NCBI RefSeq assembly: GCF_024502345.1
Contig: NZ_JALDNN010000001.1
Direction: 5' to 3' (one strand)
DNA: 64,000 nucleotides
Origin: Escherichia coli
Lineage (GTDB): Bacteria; Pseudomonadota; Gammaproteobacteria; Enterobacterales; Enterobacteriaceae
Shown here: positions 37,790 through 43,559 of the stretch, in pieces
Layout of the letters: every line of letters starts with the position of its first letter
How positions within the stretch are numbered: position 1 is the first letter of the stretch
Translations under genes and position numbers: made by a program
The notes under the pieces: model-generated
What the model was told of the DNA's origin: nothing
Seen by the model: only the letters and a program-made list of their open reading frames with translations
Database searches by the model: none

Positions 37790-38229
37790 AAAGCCATGAC
37801 CTGAAGAAAGCGCTGTGTCAATGGACGGCGATGCTGGCCCTGGTGGTAAGCGGCGCGGTTTGGGCGGCTAATGGCGTCGATTTTAGCCAGTCGCCGGAAG
37901 TATCCGGGACGCAGGAAGGGGCCATTCGGATGCCAAAAGAGCAGGATCGGATGCCGCTGAACTATGTGAATCAGCCGCCAATGATCCCGCATAGCGTTGA
38001 AGGTTATCAGGTAACGACCAATACCAACCGCTGCTTGCAGTGCCACGGTGTCGAAAGCTATCGCACCACTGGCGCGCCGCGTATCAGTCCTACTCACTTT
38101 ATGGACAGCGACGGCAAAGTGGGCGCGGAAGTGGCTCCGCGTCGTTATTTCTGTCTGCAATGTCACGTACCGCAGGCCGATACCGCGCCAATCGTGGGGA
38201 ATACCTTTACCCCATCAAATACCGAATGA
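37786..38229 (+). CDS. napB: periplasmic nitrate reductase dihaem cytochrome c subunit; final codons appear replaced at the prophage junction
   Basis: [27 protein letters not shown]... with two CxxCH motifs (CLQCH x2); ends ...NTFTPSNTE whereas the remembered reference ends ...TPSKGYGK. Confidence 0.88.
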   Translation: MKSHDLKKALCQWTAMLALVVSGAVWAANGVDFSQSPEVSGTQEGAIRMPKEQDRMPLNYVNQPPMIPHSVEGYQVTTNTNRCLQCHGVESYRTTGAPRISPTHFMDSDGKVGAEVAPRRYFCLQCHVPQADTAPIVGNTFTPSNTE

Positions 38230-38671
38230 AGTGGACTATCGAAAATTGCAGGAACTGTTCACGCGGATCGCCATCGATAAACATATTCAGCAAAAGCTTG
38301 AACATCCTCACCACCAGCTGGTGGCTACCTACCAGTCATTAAACCGCAAGTATTCAGAATTGCTGGAGGAATACAAAATCCTTCGGCGCTGCTTCTCTGT
38401 TTCCGCTCTTGTTCCTTATACCGACGTATGGACACATAAGCCTGTTCAGTTTTATCCAGGCAAACATCCATGCGAAAAACCTGCCGACATGCTGAAACAG
38501 ATCATTAGCGCCAGCAGCAGACCGGGGGATATCGTTGCCGATTTCTTTATGGGCTCTGGTTCAACTGTGAAAGCTGCAATAGAACTTGGCCGTCGGGCGA
38601 TCGGCGTAGAACTGGAGGCAGACAGGTTTATACAGACCACCGAAGAGGTGGAAAAACTGAAAAAATCATAA
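38219..38671 (+). pseudogene. 5'-truncated phage DNA N6-adenine/N4-cytosine methyltransferase (C-terminal fragment only)
   Basis: HPCEKP and DIVADFFMGSGSTVKAAIELGRRAIGVELE (FxGxG SAM-binding motif I) present; no DPPY catalytic motif and no in-frame start after the napB junction. Confidence 0.6.
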
Positions 38672-38816
38672 CGATCACCACGCTCCCCCGTTGCTGTGGT
38701 GATCACCATCTTCAGGCACCGGGAATCATCCTTAATTTTTACTTGAACATAAGAGCCCGGTTGCCTGATCCCCTTCAATCACACACAGCGCCATCCGAAC
38801 TATCGGAGGTGAGGCT

Positions 38817-39095
38817 ATGACCAGAATGAGCACCATTTACAGCAGACTTTCATATGGATCAGGAACCACGCTTGCCGGCTGCGGTGTATCAGCGAAGGCA
38901 TATGCCGAAACAGCTAAAACAGCAAAAGAGGTGTCCTGGATGTTGGCCGACAGAATTGCAGGGTTAAGCCTGAGTGACTGGGCAATTATTGTCGGTATCG
39001 CATGCACAGTTATCACCTGTGCAGTGAACTGGTATTACAGGAAAAAGGAAAGGGAGGACCGGCTTAATGGCAATGTCACCAAAGCAGAAGAATAA
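38817..39095 (+). CDS. putative holin (pinholin-like, possible dual start MTRM)
   Basis: 92-aa ORF with strong RBS ggaggtga, hydrophobic TM segment WAIIVGIACTVITCAVNWYY and charged C-terminus; directly upstream of the endolysin. Confidence 0.6.
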   Translation: MTRMSTIYSRLSYGSGTTLAGCGVSAKAYAETAKTAKEVSWMLADRIAGLSLSDWAIIVGIACTVITCAVNWYYRKKEREDRLNGNVTKAEE

Positions 39096-39615
39096 ACTGA
39101 GCGCAGCGGTCGTTGGGTTAATTCTTGCCGGGGCTTCCGCACCCGTGATTCTCGATCAGTTTCTGGATGAGAAAGAGGGTAACAGCACAACAGCGTACAA
39201 GGACGGCTCTGGTATATGGACCATTTGTCGTGGCGCTACGATGGTTGATGGCAAGCCAGTAGTTCAGGGCATGAAGCTGTCTGCTGAGAAATGTTCCAAG
39301 GTGAACGCCATAGAACGCGACAAGGCGCTGGCGTGGGTCGAGCGAAACATCAAGGTGCCACTGACCGAACCACAGAAAGCCGGGATCGCGTCTTTCTGCC
39401 CATATAACATCGGTCCCGGAAAATGTTTCCCATCTACGTTCTATAAGCGAATAAATGCTGGCGACCGTGAAGGTGCCTGTGAAGCGATCCGCTGGTGGAT
39501 AAAAGACGGTGGTCGCGATTGTCGTCTGACCAAAGGGCAGAAGAACGGTTGCTATGGTCAGGTTGAACGGCGAGACCAGGAAAGCGCGTTGACGTGCTGG
39601 GGGATAGACCAGTGA
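39067..39615 (+). CDS. SAR endolysin (T4-lysozyme-like muramidase with N-terminal signal-anchor-release domain)
   Basis: N-terminal [19 protein letters not shown] hydrophobic segment followed by the E-x8-D-x5-T catalytic triad context ([20 protein letters not shown]). Confidence 0.85.
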
Positions 39616-40127
39616 GCCTGCGCTATCAGTTCATTGTTATTTTGTTGCTGGTGGCCGTTGCATTCTTCGCGGGTAGTGTATGGAGCAGCCGCGGTTGGGA
39701 AAAGAAGTGGGCCGAGCGTGACAGCGTAGAATCATCGCAAACAGCGAACGCACAGACCGCCGCTCGCATGATTGAACAAGGGCGTATTATTGCCCGTGAT
39801 GAGGCTGTAAAAGATGCACAAGCACAAGCCGCTAAATCCGCTGCCACTGCTGCTGGCCTGTCTGCCACTGTTAACCAGCTGCGTACCGAAGCAACAAAGC
39901 TTGCCACTCGCCTGGACGCCGCAAAGCACACCGCAGATCTTGCCACTGCCGTCAGAAGCAAAACAGCCGGAGCCGACGCCGCAGTGCTCGCCGACATGCT
40001 CGGACGCCTTGCAGAAGAAGCTCGATATTATGCTGAGCGATCTGACGAAAGCTACCGGGCAGGAATGACGTGTGAGCGCATTTACGACTCAGTGAGGCAG
40101 TCAAACAACAACAGGGTTAGAAGATGA
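39594..40127 (+). CDS. i-spanin Rz
   Basis: N-terminal TM ([15 protein letters not shown]) plus coiled-coil Ala/Gln-rich periplasmic domain; overlaps the endolysin end; contains the embedded Rz1 frame. Confidence 0.75.
39814..40068 (+). CDS. o-spanin Rz1 (lipoprotein) embedded in the +1 frame of Rz
   Basis: Signal peptide with lipobox-like LLTSC, then a Pro-rich mature region; entirely inside Rz. Confidence 0.65.
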
Positions 40128-40354
40128 ACGCAGAAAACCTAAGTGAAGCGTATTACCTCAATAACGATATAAAAGAACTACAACTTCAGAAAAGCATACT
40201 GGAAAGTGGTGCCGGACTTGGTGTGACAATCCAGTCTACCTATCAGGATAACGCCTTTCTTGATGCCATACGCCCGCATGCAGTGGCTGAACTTGATCGC
40301 CGTATTGTGGAGAAGAAAAAAAACCTCTCCACTCTGGGTGTTACATTCTCTTAA
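40124..40354 (+). CDS. hypothetical small prophage protein (76 aa)
   Basis: ORF starting 4 nt before the Rz stop (translational coupling); no recognisable motif. Confidence 0.35.
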
Positions 40355-40738
40355 ATGAGAACAACAATAAAAGGTTATGTCTGCTTTGCCACATTCTGAG
40401 AGTATGAGTTTTATTTGGTAGTCAATCAGTTACTTTATTGGTTTGCTTTCCGATGGAAGATAGATGTTTCCACAGAAGGGGCAAATTAACGTTATATTGT
40501 TTTTTATTCTCGACAGACTGTGCTTTGACTGGCGGGAGCAATGAGGACAAGTACTTTTCACATGGCGTAAAGTACGCATCTTGATATCTTTGAGTATCGA
40601 CATGTTGATTGTCCTGGTGGGCGGTTAACAACCATACACCACATGTTGGCTAATAGCTTCTTTTATAACCGTTACGATGTAGTCGTTAGCCATAATCAAT
40701 CAAGCCTCGCAATAGCGGGGCTTTTTAACAACTGAGGA

Positions 40739-40942
40739 ATGAGCATTACAGTAGTTCTTACAGCTAAGCAGATTGAAGACCTGGCTGCCTTCGCAAAAGA
40801 AGATGGCCAGCCACAATATACCATCACTACCGGAACAATCCCTGAGTTCGAAGCGGATGATGGCGAGGTTATCCCTGAGTACACCGGGCTGATTGCCTAT
40901 TCCGAGTCGCTAGAGCATAGCGTTCTACAGCTCGATAACTAA
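40739..40942 (+). CDS. hypothetical small acidic prophage protein (67 aa); a degenerate paralogue lies at about 42.78-42.96 kb
   Basis: ORF with the motif F-E-ADDG-x-I-P-x-Y-TGL; a similar C-terminal fragment (FDADDGTLSPNTLGLL...) recurs at 42823-42962. Confidence 0.35.
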   Translation: MSITVVLTAKQIEDLAAFAKEDGQPQYTITTGTIPEFEADDGEVIPEYTGLIAYSESLEHSVLQLDN

Positions 40943-40989
40943 CGAATCAACATAACTTTCCATCCGCCATGACACCACAATGCTCGTAG

Positions 40990-41110
40990 ACATGCCAGGA
41001 AGCCTGGCAGAAGAAGCTCGATACCATGCTGAACGCGCTGATGAAAACTACCGAGCAGGAATGACATGTGAGCGGATTTATGAGTCCGTAAAAATACTAA
41101 CAATGAACCG
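40990..41110 (+). pseudogene. remnant 3' end of a second Rz/Rz1 spanin gene
   Basis: Translates to ...[29 protein letters not shown]..., about 80 percent identical to the Rz C-terminus at 40000-40127; no upstream gene body. Confidence 0.6.
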
Positions 41111-41129
41111 TAGAGGAAAAATAATAGCT

Positions 41130-41514
41130 CTATAAATTAAGATGTTGACGGTTTTCGTGGATAAATTTGTGAATTTTTACTATGAAGGAAATACGACTCT
41201 TCCTTGAGTCAAAATCCCTGACAACTTAGGGTGATAGATAAAGGTCTTACGCAGCATGACATAATTTTCGATTTAAGCTATTTAAATTAATTTTTAAGAT
41301 CAAAACCCACTGAGATTTACTTACAAAACTAAACCTTGCTATGTCTGGTTAATCATGCGTTAATGAATGTCTGGTTTGTAACGAATTTATCTGAAGCAGT
41401 CGCTGTAATAATTTTATTCCTTGTTCCTGTTGAGATTTCCTTGTTAGCTTTTCTCTCTGATAAATTTTTTTCGGACCATTCTGCCCAAGGGCTTACTCAA
41501 TAAAGGTAATGTTT
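41130..41514 (+). promoter_or_regulatory. long AT-rich leader/promoter region upstream of the cold-shock gene
   Basis: About 380 bp AT-rich non-coding sequence before csp, as is typical of the long 5' UTRs of cspA-family genes. Confidence 0.35.
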
Positions 41515-41727
41515 ATGTCTAATAAAATGACTGGTTTAGTTAAATGGTTTAATCCTGAAAAAGGTTTTGGTTTTATCACTCCAAAAGATGGTAGTAAAGA
41601 TGTGTTTGTTCACTTCTCTGCTATCCAGAGTAATGATTTCAAGACGTTGAATGAGAATCAGGAAGTTGAATTTAGTGTTGAACAGGGACCTAAAGGCCCC
41701 ACGGCAGTTAATGTCGTGGCTGTATAA
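41515..41727 (+). CDS. cold-shock protein, CspA family (prophage-borne, CspB/CspI-like)
   Basis: [70 protein letters not shown] with RNP1/RNP2 motifs. Confidence 0.9.
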
Positions 41728-41931
41728 GGTAACTGTTATTACTAATAATATTCACTTCAGATGTCCGTGTTGCCACGGATCTCAGTACCGAACGTCAAAC
41801 TTTGATGTTACTGAAAAAAATCCTTTCGGAGCAAAATGTATTTTTTGCAAATCAACAATGATTACATTTGATAATATTGCACTGTACATTCGTTCTGGTC
41901 AGTCTTCGTTAGAATTCAGAAAATAAATTTC

Positions 41932-41953
41932 AGGCTCCTTATGGAGCCTTTTT
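41932..41953 (+). terminator. intrinsic terminator
   Basis: aggctcc-ttat-ggagcct hairpin followed by ttttt. Confidence 0.6.
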
Positions 41954-41999
41954 TGTATGCTGAACCGACAATCTCTGTAAGAGACATCACGGTAAAATT

Positions 42000-42230
42000 A
42001 TGAAAAAAGTCATCGTTTTTTTTAATGCAGAACCAGCAGTTGTTGTAACCGTAATGAAAGGTATTACTACGATAATGCGTGAGTTTCCCAATGGGGAAAA
42101 AGCACACCTACCCGTGATGTCAGCGGGATTTCCATCTCTGACAGGAGACCATAAAATAGTTTATGTAGCCTCTGATCGTGATGTCAGTTCAGAAGAGATC
42201 CTCGAGGCAGCCTCGAAGCTTTTGAAATGA
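42000..42230 (+). CDS. YmcE-like small protein (76 aa)
   Basis: 76-aa ORF immediately upstream of a gnsA/B-like gene, the same arrangement and size as ymcE-gnsA in K-12; identity not verified. Confidence 0.4.
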   Translation: MKKVIVFFNAEPAVVVTVMKGITTIMREFPNGEKAHLPVMSAGFPSLTGDHKIVYVASDRDVSSEEILEAASKLLK

Positions 42231-42434
42231 GATCTGGTTGTTTCGTGACCGACCCGGATTTTAGTACAGTGGTTTGTGTGGTCGCGAGCTCTTTTGCATG
42301 AAGATTGTACTGCAAACTATTGATAATTGAGTCTTTCTATTCTATCTTTTAAACATATCAGCGCTTATACAAGTGCTCTACGGGGAATGTAACATGCCTG
42401 GCGTTGATACGTTAGAGATCAAGAGAGGTAAACA

Positions 42435-42608
42435 ATGAACGTCGAAGATTTAAAAAGAAAAACTGAAGCGGATATTTCTGAATTCATCACAAAAAAAATT
42501 ATTGAACTCAAAAAAAAGACAGGAAAAGAAGTTTCCGATATCCAGTTTAATGCTCGTGAAAAAATGACTGGGCTTGAAAGCTATGATATTAAAATCACAT
42601 TAATCTAA
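42435..42608 (+). CDS. GnsA/GnsB-family protein (57 aa; below the ORF-track size cutoff)
   Basis: Manual translation MNVEDLKRKTEADISEFITKKIIELKKKTGKEVSDIQFNAREKMTGLESYDIKITLI, close to remembered GnsA/GnsB sequences. Confidence 0.8.
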   Translation: MNVEDLKRKTEADISEFITKKIIELKKKTGKEVSDIQFNAREKMTGLESYDIKITLI

Positions 42609-43049
42609 TTGTTATAAGACTCAGTTCGAGTGAAAAAGCATTATCTTGAAAGGTAATGCTTTTTTATTTCTGTCATAAAATTTAGAACGTTGTCAAAGCC
42701 TTCACTTCTAACCACAGATTTTCTGCTTACCTTTTAACGGGTCCTCCTTGACGATTCTGACCATCGAGGGGCAGCAGCGGCGCGGGATTTGGAGCATTTT
42801 TGATTCTTCACGCAACCATTTCAGCATTTGATGCTGATGACGGAACACTATCCCCGAATACACTGGGTTTGTTGCATTCTCTGATTCAAAAGAACACGGT
42901 GTGCTTCAACTTGGCTGAGCAGGCATTACAGCAGACATTCACTGAGTGCCTGCGACAAAGTTAAATGGCATCAAGCATGCGATGATGATTGATTAATAAT
43001 TGAGCTATGCATGGTATAATAAGCCCCATTCATTGAAAGGTTAACCACC

Positions 43050-43214
43050 ATGTCATTTTTCGATTATGCAATGCAGCGTGTTGGGCTTGCAGCCAATACG
43101 ACTGTCATGTGCCCGATATGCGGACATAAATCCACACACTCGACCACGAAAGTACGCCAACAACAGGCGTTACTTTGCCCTAAATGTAAATCGCTGTTTG
43201 TCATTCACAGATAA
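43050..43214 (+). CDS. hypothetical small zinc-ribbon protein (about 54 aa; below track cutoff)
   Basis: Manual translation MSFFDYAMQRVGLAANTTVMCPICGHKSTHSTTKVRQQQALLCPKCKSLFVIHR with CPxCG...CPKC; followed by terminator hairpins. Confidence 0.3.
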   Translation: MSFFDYAMQRVGLAANTTVMCPICGHKSTHSTTKVRQQQALLCPKCKSLFVIHR

Positions 43215-43233
43215 CATGCGACCTGCTGAATAT

Positions 43234-43256
43234 AACCGCCTACGGGCGGTTTTTTA
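43234..43256 (+). terminator. intrinsic terminator (a second hairpin gccactttcgagtggc + T-run follows at about 43271-43293)
   Basis: ccgcc-tacg-ggcgg hairpin followed by tttttt. Confidence 0.6.
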
Positions 43257-43370
43257 TTGCCATCACAAAGGCCACTTTCGAGTGGCTTTTTTAATGGTCA
43301 TCACGACGGGTATTACAGCAGGAATTACTGAGTGCCTGCGATAATGCTCAATATTTTTATCGGAGTGAAT

Positions 43371-43559
43371 ATGCCACCGCGCACACCGAAGGCCGGCCTG
43401 AAAGGGGCGATACAAAAAAGGGAAAAAATGAAAAGACATAAGCGAAATAAAAAAGCCACCACATCTGCAAATGTGATGGCTGGCATTCGGATTAATTCAG
43501 GTTGGCTGAATAAGTTAGCCGCAGATATTACTAAAATAATTAATGAAGCATGTCCCTAA
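43371..43559 (+). CDS. hypothetical small highly basic protein (62 aa)
   Basis: ggag RBS 5 nt before the ATG; translation MPPRTPKAGLKGAIQKREKMKRHKRNKKATTSANVMAGIRINSGWLNKLAADITKIINEACP. Confidence 0.35.
   Translation: MPPRTPKAGLKGAIQKREKMKRHKRNKKATTSANVMAGIRINSGWLNKLAADITKIINEACP

Follow-up and report, generated by a model that had tools for sequence, protein, structure and literature searches.

A truncated second copy of Rz in an Escherichia coli prophage as the probable scar of an out-of-register join between two lambdoid late regions

The stretch of DNA analyzed here (64,000 nt of E. coli contig NZ_JALDNN010000001.1, RefSeq assembly GCF_024502345.1; referred to below as the window) contains phage genes adjoining a host flank that is 100% E. 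coli nap operon. At the border, the host gene napB is joined through its 3' end to a truncated phage DNA-methyltransferase gene, and searches with either start codon found no recorded gene for the fused NapB product. The lysis genes follow, namely holin, lysozyme and an intact Rz with an embedded Rz1, and these are succeeded by three small genes (the cargo), a truncated second copy of the Rz 3' end (dRz) and a gene with a cold-shock leader (Table 1).

Table 1. Coordinates of the features at the repeated Rz end, given as positions in the window
Feature	Coordinates	Strand	Evidence or remark
Truncated phage DNA-methyltransferase gene	38216-38220 (fusion point)		Fused to 3' end of host napB
Holin gene	38817-39095		
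Lysozyme gene	39067-39615		
Intact Rz (i-spanin, DUF2514)	39594-40127	+	PHROG 312 'Rz-like spanin', E = 4e-56
Rz1 (o-spanin)	39814-40068	+	+1 frame inside Rz; lipobox LLTSC, proline-rich mature part
Repeat copy 1	39975-40093	+	Inside intact Rz
orf76 (76 aa)	40124-40354	+	PHROG 5415, E = 3e-35; ATGA overlap with Rz stop
YnfU-family zinc-ribbon gene (57 aa)	40430-40603	-	NF038384, 76.4 bits versus cutoff 36; PF23499
Terminator-like hairpin and T-run	40703-40727	+	Just upstream of orf67; read from sequence
orf67 (67 aa, acidic)	40739-40942	+	PHROG 9518, E = 4e-38
Junction interval with novel joint	40943-40970		28 nt, origin ambiguous
Truncated Rz pseudogene dRz	40971-41135	+	PHROG 312 positions 132-169 only; contains repeat copy 2 (40971-41089)
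cspA-type thermoregulator 5' UTR and cspI-like gene	41370-41786 (CDS 41509-41727)	+	Rfam RF01766, 142.8 bits versus gathering score 78

The intact Rz may start at a GTG codon at 39594 (177 aa) or at 39612 (171 aa). Its residues 8-165 match positions 13-172 of the 173 positions of the PHROG 312 profile, and PF10721 is assigned to Rz in identical loci. A single N-terminal hydrophobic stretch, read by eye from the translation, predicts a transmembrane domain with type II topology. The architecture described for phage lambda combines an Rz protein that has an N-terminal transmembrane domain with an embedded Rz1 lipoprotein (PMC5295617; spanins are also treated in PMC6139136), and the intact copy of the window shares with it the N-terminal transmembrane domain, the DUF2514 periplasmic domain and the lipoprotein gene in the +1 frame. 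In each of these features, as far as they can be predicted from sequence, it is a lambda-type two-component spanin.

An initial annotation of this region had described two small ORFs behind the intact Rz. Both are present, but a third gene, of the YnfU family and on the minus strand, had been missed, so that the cargo consists of three genes and not two. The 76-aa ORF (orf76) had been considered translationally coupled to Rz, in agreement with the four-nucleotide overlap at the Rz stop codon, and the acidic character ascribed to the 67-aa ORF (orf67) is borne out by 13 D/E versus 2 K/R residues. Both proteins are strongly conserved, with a mean column identity over 24 homologues of 88% for orf76 and 94% for orf67, and both are regarded as real genes; neither has relatives in NCBIfam, PADLOC or PDB. 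AF2 predicts a generic two-helix hairpin for orf76 (pLDDT 82), which in a comparison with BFVD matched uncharacterized proteins, none of them with an E-value below 0.001, and its model of orf67 (pLDDT 62.8) was too poor for a structure search. The YnfU translation contains two CxxC pairs, CPHC and CPFC; YnfU reportedly first came to light in ribosome profiling, as a small protein (bioRxiv 10.1101/511675).

The terminator-like hairpin upstream of orf67 also precedes this gene in three other loci (L206, L208 and L213), and Rfam returned weak matches to terminator-containing families at 40627-40730 and 40662-40724. Promoter-like matches were at chance level (10 versus 8.7 expected). With regard to the traits of a phage moron, an accessory gene with transcription of its own, the cargo is patchily distributed and carries the terminator-like hairpin; orf76 is coupled to Rz and not independent. 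The three genes include no transposase, and the repeat search found no inverted repeats in 38000-43500. Insertion of a transposon with duplication of its target site was considered and rejected, the flanking copies being 119 nt long and only 82% identical.

The cargo genes occur in many settings outside the window. In E. coli, orf76 follows an intact Rz, for example in locus L003 and, with the same 4-nt overlap, in strain MEI4O1-23; elsewhere it adjoins many unrelated neighbors. In other loci orf67 lies 35 nt after an intact Rz or, in E. coli Nissle 1917, ~210 nt after it, and in further loci it follows a plus-strand ynfU, a 91-aa ORF or orf76. In other prophages orf67, orf76 and ynfU stand after intact Rz genes in varied combinations, and among 80 viral loci collected via orf67 a piece of Rz follows this gene only in the five loci of the window type. 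The initial annotation had interpreted the repeated Rz ends as a footprint of recombination between lysis cassettes, with the cargo inserted between them. A recombination footprint between phage late or lysis regions is upheld; the cargo, however, was probably not inserted between pre-existing repeats and probably arrived together with the left, intact Rz.

The direct repeat itself was recovered by local alignment and by a repeat finder as 119 ungapped nucleotides with 97/119 (81.5%) identical positions and a start-to-start spacing of 996 nt. A recurrence of the Rz 3' end at about 80% identity had been noted previously, with coordinates ~20 nt too far to the right, and the translation quoted for the second copy was correct. 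In the pairwise alignment that had been recommended as a check of significance, the repeat scored 75, compared with 10.7 +/- 1.4 and a maximum of 18 over 300 shuffles. The terminal 34 nt of the intact Rz (40094-40127) are absent from the repeat, and copy 2 ends with its own tail, KILTMNRRGKIIAL, and a stop codon at 41133-41135. Rz homology begins abruptly at the left edge of dRz, and the N-terminal part of Rz is missing, as implied by the earlier description of a second copy without a gene body. Compared with lambda Rz, dRz keeps only the region that matches by position the C-terminal coiled coil and the C-terminal domain; the N-terminal transmembrane domain, a signal peptide and the first coiled-coil domain were not found in it. 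Its Rz1 frame reads TPQCS*TCQ..., with a TAG stop and with neither a start codon nor a lipobox. In these respects dRz, as read from its predicted products, is not a two-component spanin of the lambda type.

Downstream of the csp gene lie ymcF-like, ynfN-like and gnsB-like genes and then a second ynfU. The intact counterpart of dRz was found only by synteny, through a homologue of ynfN; a protein search for a full-length Rz with the dRz tail gave only proteins of 43-75 aa. The set of ynfN homologues comprised 80 IMG/VR viral loci, 64 of which contained the csp-ynfN module together with enough upstream sequence. A full-length Rz lies directly upstream of csp in 52 of these 64 loci; the remainder consists of five loci of the window type, two with other partial Rz genes and five with an unrelated upstream region. 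In the closest relatives Rz ends 396-400 nt before csp, compared with 397-398 nt for dRz in loci of the window type, and the homology of the Rz-csp loci to the window starts at 40971-40981, with none before it. In four loci (L115-L118) both Rz and the Rz1 embedded in it are intact, and from the 3' end of Rz onward these loci are 96.7% identical to 40981-41799 of the window. A comparison with relatives that lack the intervening segment had been suggested in the initial annotation, and these loci supply it: their intact Rz occupies the position that dRz has in front of this csp module, and relative to them the window has 996 extra bases bracketed by the repeat. A layout with a full second Rz, which would have spoken against the annotation, was looked for and was present at no related locus; the nearest case is L114, in which a near-complete Rz is followed directly by a 94-aa partial Rz adjoining csp.

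The same order is seen in a Qin-type prophage of strain 33F4 (L004; rrrQ-rzpQ-cspI-ymcF-ynfN-gnsB), which is collinear with 40971-42608 of the window in both gene order and spacing; its rzpQ is complete, whereas the window keeps only the last ~55 codons. The nucleotide identity of the window to Qin-like loci is only 69-80%. Judged by these alignments, dRz is part of the Qin-like cold-shock module that lies downstream of it, csp-ymcF-ynfN-gnsB. In more distant lineages, too, csp is preceded by a full Rz; among them are Qin-like E. coli loci (75-80% identity), L119-L122 (89%) and L109-L113 (86%). Since this arrangement is found in all outgroup lineages, it is taken as ancestral for the module and the window type as derived. 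Loci of the L115 type are ~6% diverged from the window on both sides and therefore represent a sister lineage rather than the direct parent.

Of the differences between copy 1 and copy 2 of the repeat, 12 are synonymous and 10 nonsynonymous (pS 0.44, pN/pS 0.25), and pN/pS falls to 0.12 in the last 28 codons. Because the two differ mostly at synonymous sites, the copies were separate functional alleles that diverged under selection, and not the products of a recent duplication. The 119 nt of dRz are 89.1% identical to the Rz of L115-L118 and 81.5% identical to the resident Rz. The divergence of dRz from L115 (10.9%) exceeds that of the adjacent spacer (3.8%); this is not a clean test of rates, because ymcF-gnsB farther downstream also differ by ~8%.

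The arrangement of Rz, cargo and dRz is absent from complete RefSeq E. coli genomes and from GenBank phages. The block from 39000 to 43500 nevertheless recurs at full length and 95.8-98.8% identity in many assemblies and IMG/VR contigs, always with both Rz and the fragment, and shorter spans across the dRz junction are 99.8-99.9% identical in other assemblies. In index blocks of public assemblies the 51-aa ORF that can be called in dRz was found in 215 and orf67 in 936. The scar is considered old because identical copies occur in hundreds of assemblies; the organism names attached to dRz homologues are only Citrobacter. Carriers differ upstream in their antiterminator Q types and in having a methylase or another gene, and downstream in having GpA-type, TerL-type or Nu1-type terminases; as the flanking modules differ in this way, the block appears to circulate as a unit in mosaic prophages.

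The reading to which we assign a probability of about 0.8 is that two lambdoid late regions underwent one non-homologous crossover out of register, which gave rise to the arrangement, dRz being a vestige of the Rz allele that belonged to the csp module. Two co-resident or co-infecting lambdoid genomes would have been misaligned by ~1 kb. The left parent, with the order holin-lysozyme-Rz/Rz1-orf76-ynfU-orf67, would have been broken 0-28 nt past the stop codon of orf67, at the site where other prophages carry a conserved hairpin, and the right parent, with the order holin-lysozyme-Rz/Rz1-csp onward, would have been broken inside Rz, ~165 nt before its stop codon. In the recombinant, the left parent would then have contributed the lysis cassette and the right parent the late genes together with the csp module, the orphan 3' end of Rz being a mere passenger. 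Such a recombinant should be viable because it retains one complete lysis cassette. The data show the repeat itself, that its copies are alleles, that dRz is syntenic with intact Rz genes, that the cargo genes are distributed independently and that dRz drifts neutrally; we infer that there was one non-homologous crossover and that it proceeded in the direction given.

Homology to orf67 of the Nissle type ends at 40944, and the 28-nt joint aligns weakly with Rz and about as poorly with the flank of the hairpin. Since there is no homology at the left edge of dRz, the join looks non-homologous. An exact left parent, with Rz, orf76, ynfU, orf67 and the hairpin and without the fragment, was not found among the loci, which include partial versions of it (L003, L072 and L213). 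Apart from L114, internal deletion of Rz in L022 and a holin-Rz deletion fusion in L012 and L014 are independent scars of the same kind, and they support the general picture.

The order of events might also be reversed: the layout of L115-L118 would then be secondary, produced by recombination across the 119-nt repeat that deleted 996 bp and left a chimeric functional Rz. Direct repeats of this length and 82% identity are plausible substrates, and the Rz of L115 does resemble the resident allele over its 5' portion (94% for the protein), whereas beyond roughly the midpoint of the repeat it resembles the fragment. In addition, the 3' part of the fragment in L023 has been replaced by another Rz-type end, so this homology patch still serves as a substrate for recombination. 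However, a full Rz precedes csp in every more distant lineage, L115 shows none of the changes specific to the fragment and is ~6% diverged on both flanks, and the residues common to L115 and the resident allele are mostly the family consensus. The reversed polarity is therefore unlikely.

A similarly doubtful proposal is that the post-lysis region is an organized exchange zone for accessory genes, in which the conserved hairpin would act as a recombination or processing site for swaps and the Rz/dRz pair as a second patch of homology. If this were true, the repeat could allow reversible loss of the three-gene cassette.

It is considerably less probable that dRz has been kept for a function, either as a 51-aa peptide from the Rz C-terminus or as a cis element for the downstream csp gene. 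The ORF, callable from an ATG at 40980, is open and identical in most carriers, bears the NCBI name DUF2514 family protein, and is separated from the csp 5' UTR downstream by 235-400 nt. Against a function, there is no Shine-Dalgarno sequence ahead of this ATG, and a product with neither a transmembrane domain nor a signal peptide cannot reach the periplasm, where Rz acts (PMC5295617). A Leu-to-Pro change specific to dRz lies in the coiled-coil region, and the Rz1 frame is interrupted by the stop codon mentioned above. Polymorphism among carriers comprises 10 nonsynonymous and 3 synonymous changes in dRz (pN/pS 1.0; a small sample), compared with 57 and 68 in the intact Rz (pN/pS 0.27), and the values for the other intact genes are 0.25 for csp, 0.41 for orf76 and 0.55 for orf67. 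With these small dRz counts, the difference gives p = 0.04 in a Fisher test against the intact Rz and p = 0.08 against all intact genes pooled. Seven database homologues of dRz were obtained, all short (43-75 aa) and with variable ends; P0001-P0005, and probably P0006, are the same Rz fragment, whose ORF length is 51, 55, 72 or 75 aa. P0007, from L022, was considered as the same fragment in another context and was rejected, as it results from the independent internal Rz deletion. Replacement of the 3' part in L023 also argues against a function, as does the presence of working csp modules with a complete Rz at this position in the 52 loci described above. Most likely, to judge from its sequence features, dRz is a promoterless, non-functional vestige of a different Rz allele that drifts neutrally among carriers. 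For annotators, this means that the 51-aa "DUF2514 family protein" at this place is a pseudogene fragment.

Slightly less credible still is duplication in situ, in which the 3' end of the resident Rz was copied within one genome, for instance by slipped or unequal sister exchange during insertion of the cargo. Such an event would account for two direct copies that bracket an extra segment and for the lack of a full second Rz at any locus. However, the copies differ at 18.5% of positions, mostly synonymously, compared with a divergence of the whole block of no more than ~5% among carriers; dRz is closer to the Rz of L115-L118, with the similarity continuing downstream, than to the resident gene; and past the repeat the copies continue into different tails. 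A chance resemblance or an artefact of the assembly, for which only the short length of the repeat speaks, can practically be dismissed given the alignment score relative to the shuffles and the recurrence of the junction at 98-100% identity in at least 24 independently assembled contigs, some of them megabase-scale chromosomal records, as well as in IMG/VR contigs.

The out-of-register crossover can be compared with known mosaic joints. Truncated Rz genes are known in defective prophages of E. coli K-12, an example being the rzpR pseudogene of Rac, likewise an orphan piece of Rz that persists in a prophage. Fragments of the Rac type mark prophage decay, whereas dRz marks a join between modules, with an intact Rz 1 kb upstream, and its block circulates among otherwise complete prophages. 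Mosaic junctions of lambdoid phages were reportedly the subject of the HK97-HK022 work of Hendrix and Juhala. As in the mosaic joints of tailed phages, two modules of different ancestry have been joined here, one functional cassette has been kept and the flanking modules vary. Most described joints, however, lie at gene borders and leave no trace, whereas the right-hand break here would lie inside a gene, so that the scar has stayed visible in the form of a 165-nt fragment and a direct repeat of 119 nt. Two models of such joints have been contrasted, namely recombination without extended homology and exchange at short conserved boundary sequences (PMC3029335); the present joint would be an example of the former. 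The kind of scar is thus familiar from phage mosaicism, and this specific scar is undescribed as far as was searched. It shows neither a new mechanism nor a new function and is an ordinary by-product of phage mosaic evolution. Visible out-of-register scars are direct evidence for the formation of mosaics, because most joints leave no trace, and the present scar provides a dated and polarized example. The right-hand parent has an intact counterpart, and each of the three cargo genes is distributed independently.

The conserved hairpin was observed separately. Its sequence, GCATTACA-GCAGGCA-TTCACTGAG-TGCCTGC-GATAATG (38 nt), lies directly 3' of orf67, orf76 and plus-strand ynfU in other prophages, and the sequences just past it diverge completely. 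Copies were found with an nhmmer profile, and no Rfam family matched the element; RNAalifold gave eight pairs, seven of which have compensatory double changes. The first orf67 of the window lacks the hairpin exactly where the Rz fragment joins, and two copies, at 42923-42960 and 43312-43346, flank the second ynfU. Among 5,426 complete E. coli genomes, 150 contain the hairpin; in one of them, that of NEB10-beta, it is located in a lambdoid prophage, after the last of the genes that come after the lysis cassette.

Rz, the spanin gene of the lysis cassette, has been rearranged independently in several related prophage or viral loci (L114, L022, L012 and L014), and breakpoints seem to recur in this gene. 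The types of rearrangement are listed in the table, together with the features of the window discussed below.

Rz rearrangements in related loci and features of the window
Feature	Source	Coordinates	Strand	Remarks
Near-complete Rz, then 94-aa partial Rz	L114	2306-3143		partial Rz adjoins csp
Internal deletion in Rz	L022	4340-4640		
Holin-Rz deletion fusion	L012 and L014			holin residues 1-60 joined to Rz from residue 75
YnfU-family zinc-ribbon gene	window	40430-40603	-	
Prophage csp with full cspA-type thermoregulator 5' UTR	window	41370-41786		RF01766
ymcF-like CxxC gene	window	~41729-41926		downstream of csp
Degenerate second copy of orf67 3' part	window	42800-42964		after gnsB
Hairpin, first copy	window	42923-42960	+	
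YnfU-family zinc-ribbon gene (ynfU2)	window	43050-43214	+	
Hairpin, second copy	window	43312-43346	+	

Each small gene past the lysis cassette ends with a hairpin, immediately beyond which the sequences diverge totally. The hairpin lies directly 3' of the 67-aa acidic ORF (orf67), the 76-aa ORF (orf76) or ynfU2 in approximately 120 related loci, compensatory changes are found in seven of its eight stem pairs, and 150 out of 5,426 complete E. coli genomes carry it, one of them (strain NEB10-beta) in a lambdoid prophage. The conserved element spans 38 nt and reads GCATTACA-GCAGGCA-loop-TGCCTGC-GATAATG; no match to it was obtained in Rfam. This hairpin may mark a module boundary or serve in recombination or RNA processing.

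In the window, its two copies flank the plus-strand YnfU-family gene on either side. The two genes of this family are divergent (∼32% identical), have opposite orientations and lie within 2.6 kb. The degenerate orf67 copy, which is located past gnsB and shows 71% over residues 45-65, continues into the first hairpin copy, so that the region contains a second, nested partial duplication (orf67/ynfU). The start of orf67 itself (window 40739-40754, ATGAGCATTACAGTAG) is similar to the sequence bordering the hairpin on its 5' side (GCATTACAGCAG); three matches were found in the window versus 0.39 expected, two of the three being the hairpins themselves, and the likeness may be due to chance.

The 5' UTR of the csp gene scored 142.8 bits against RF01766, compared with a gathering score of 78.

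Host napB, lacking its last codons, is joined at 38216-38220 to a phage gene for a DNA methyltransferase, in the middle of that gene, so that the prophage is without everything upstream of this junction. Public assemblies list no gene that encodes the fused NapB product. The fusion point consists of a 4-5 nt overlap, and the methyltransferase gene is 97.7% identical to its counterpart in a Nissle 1917 prophage.
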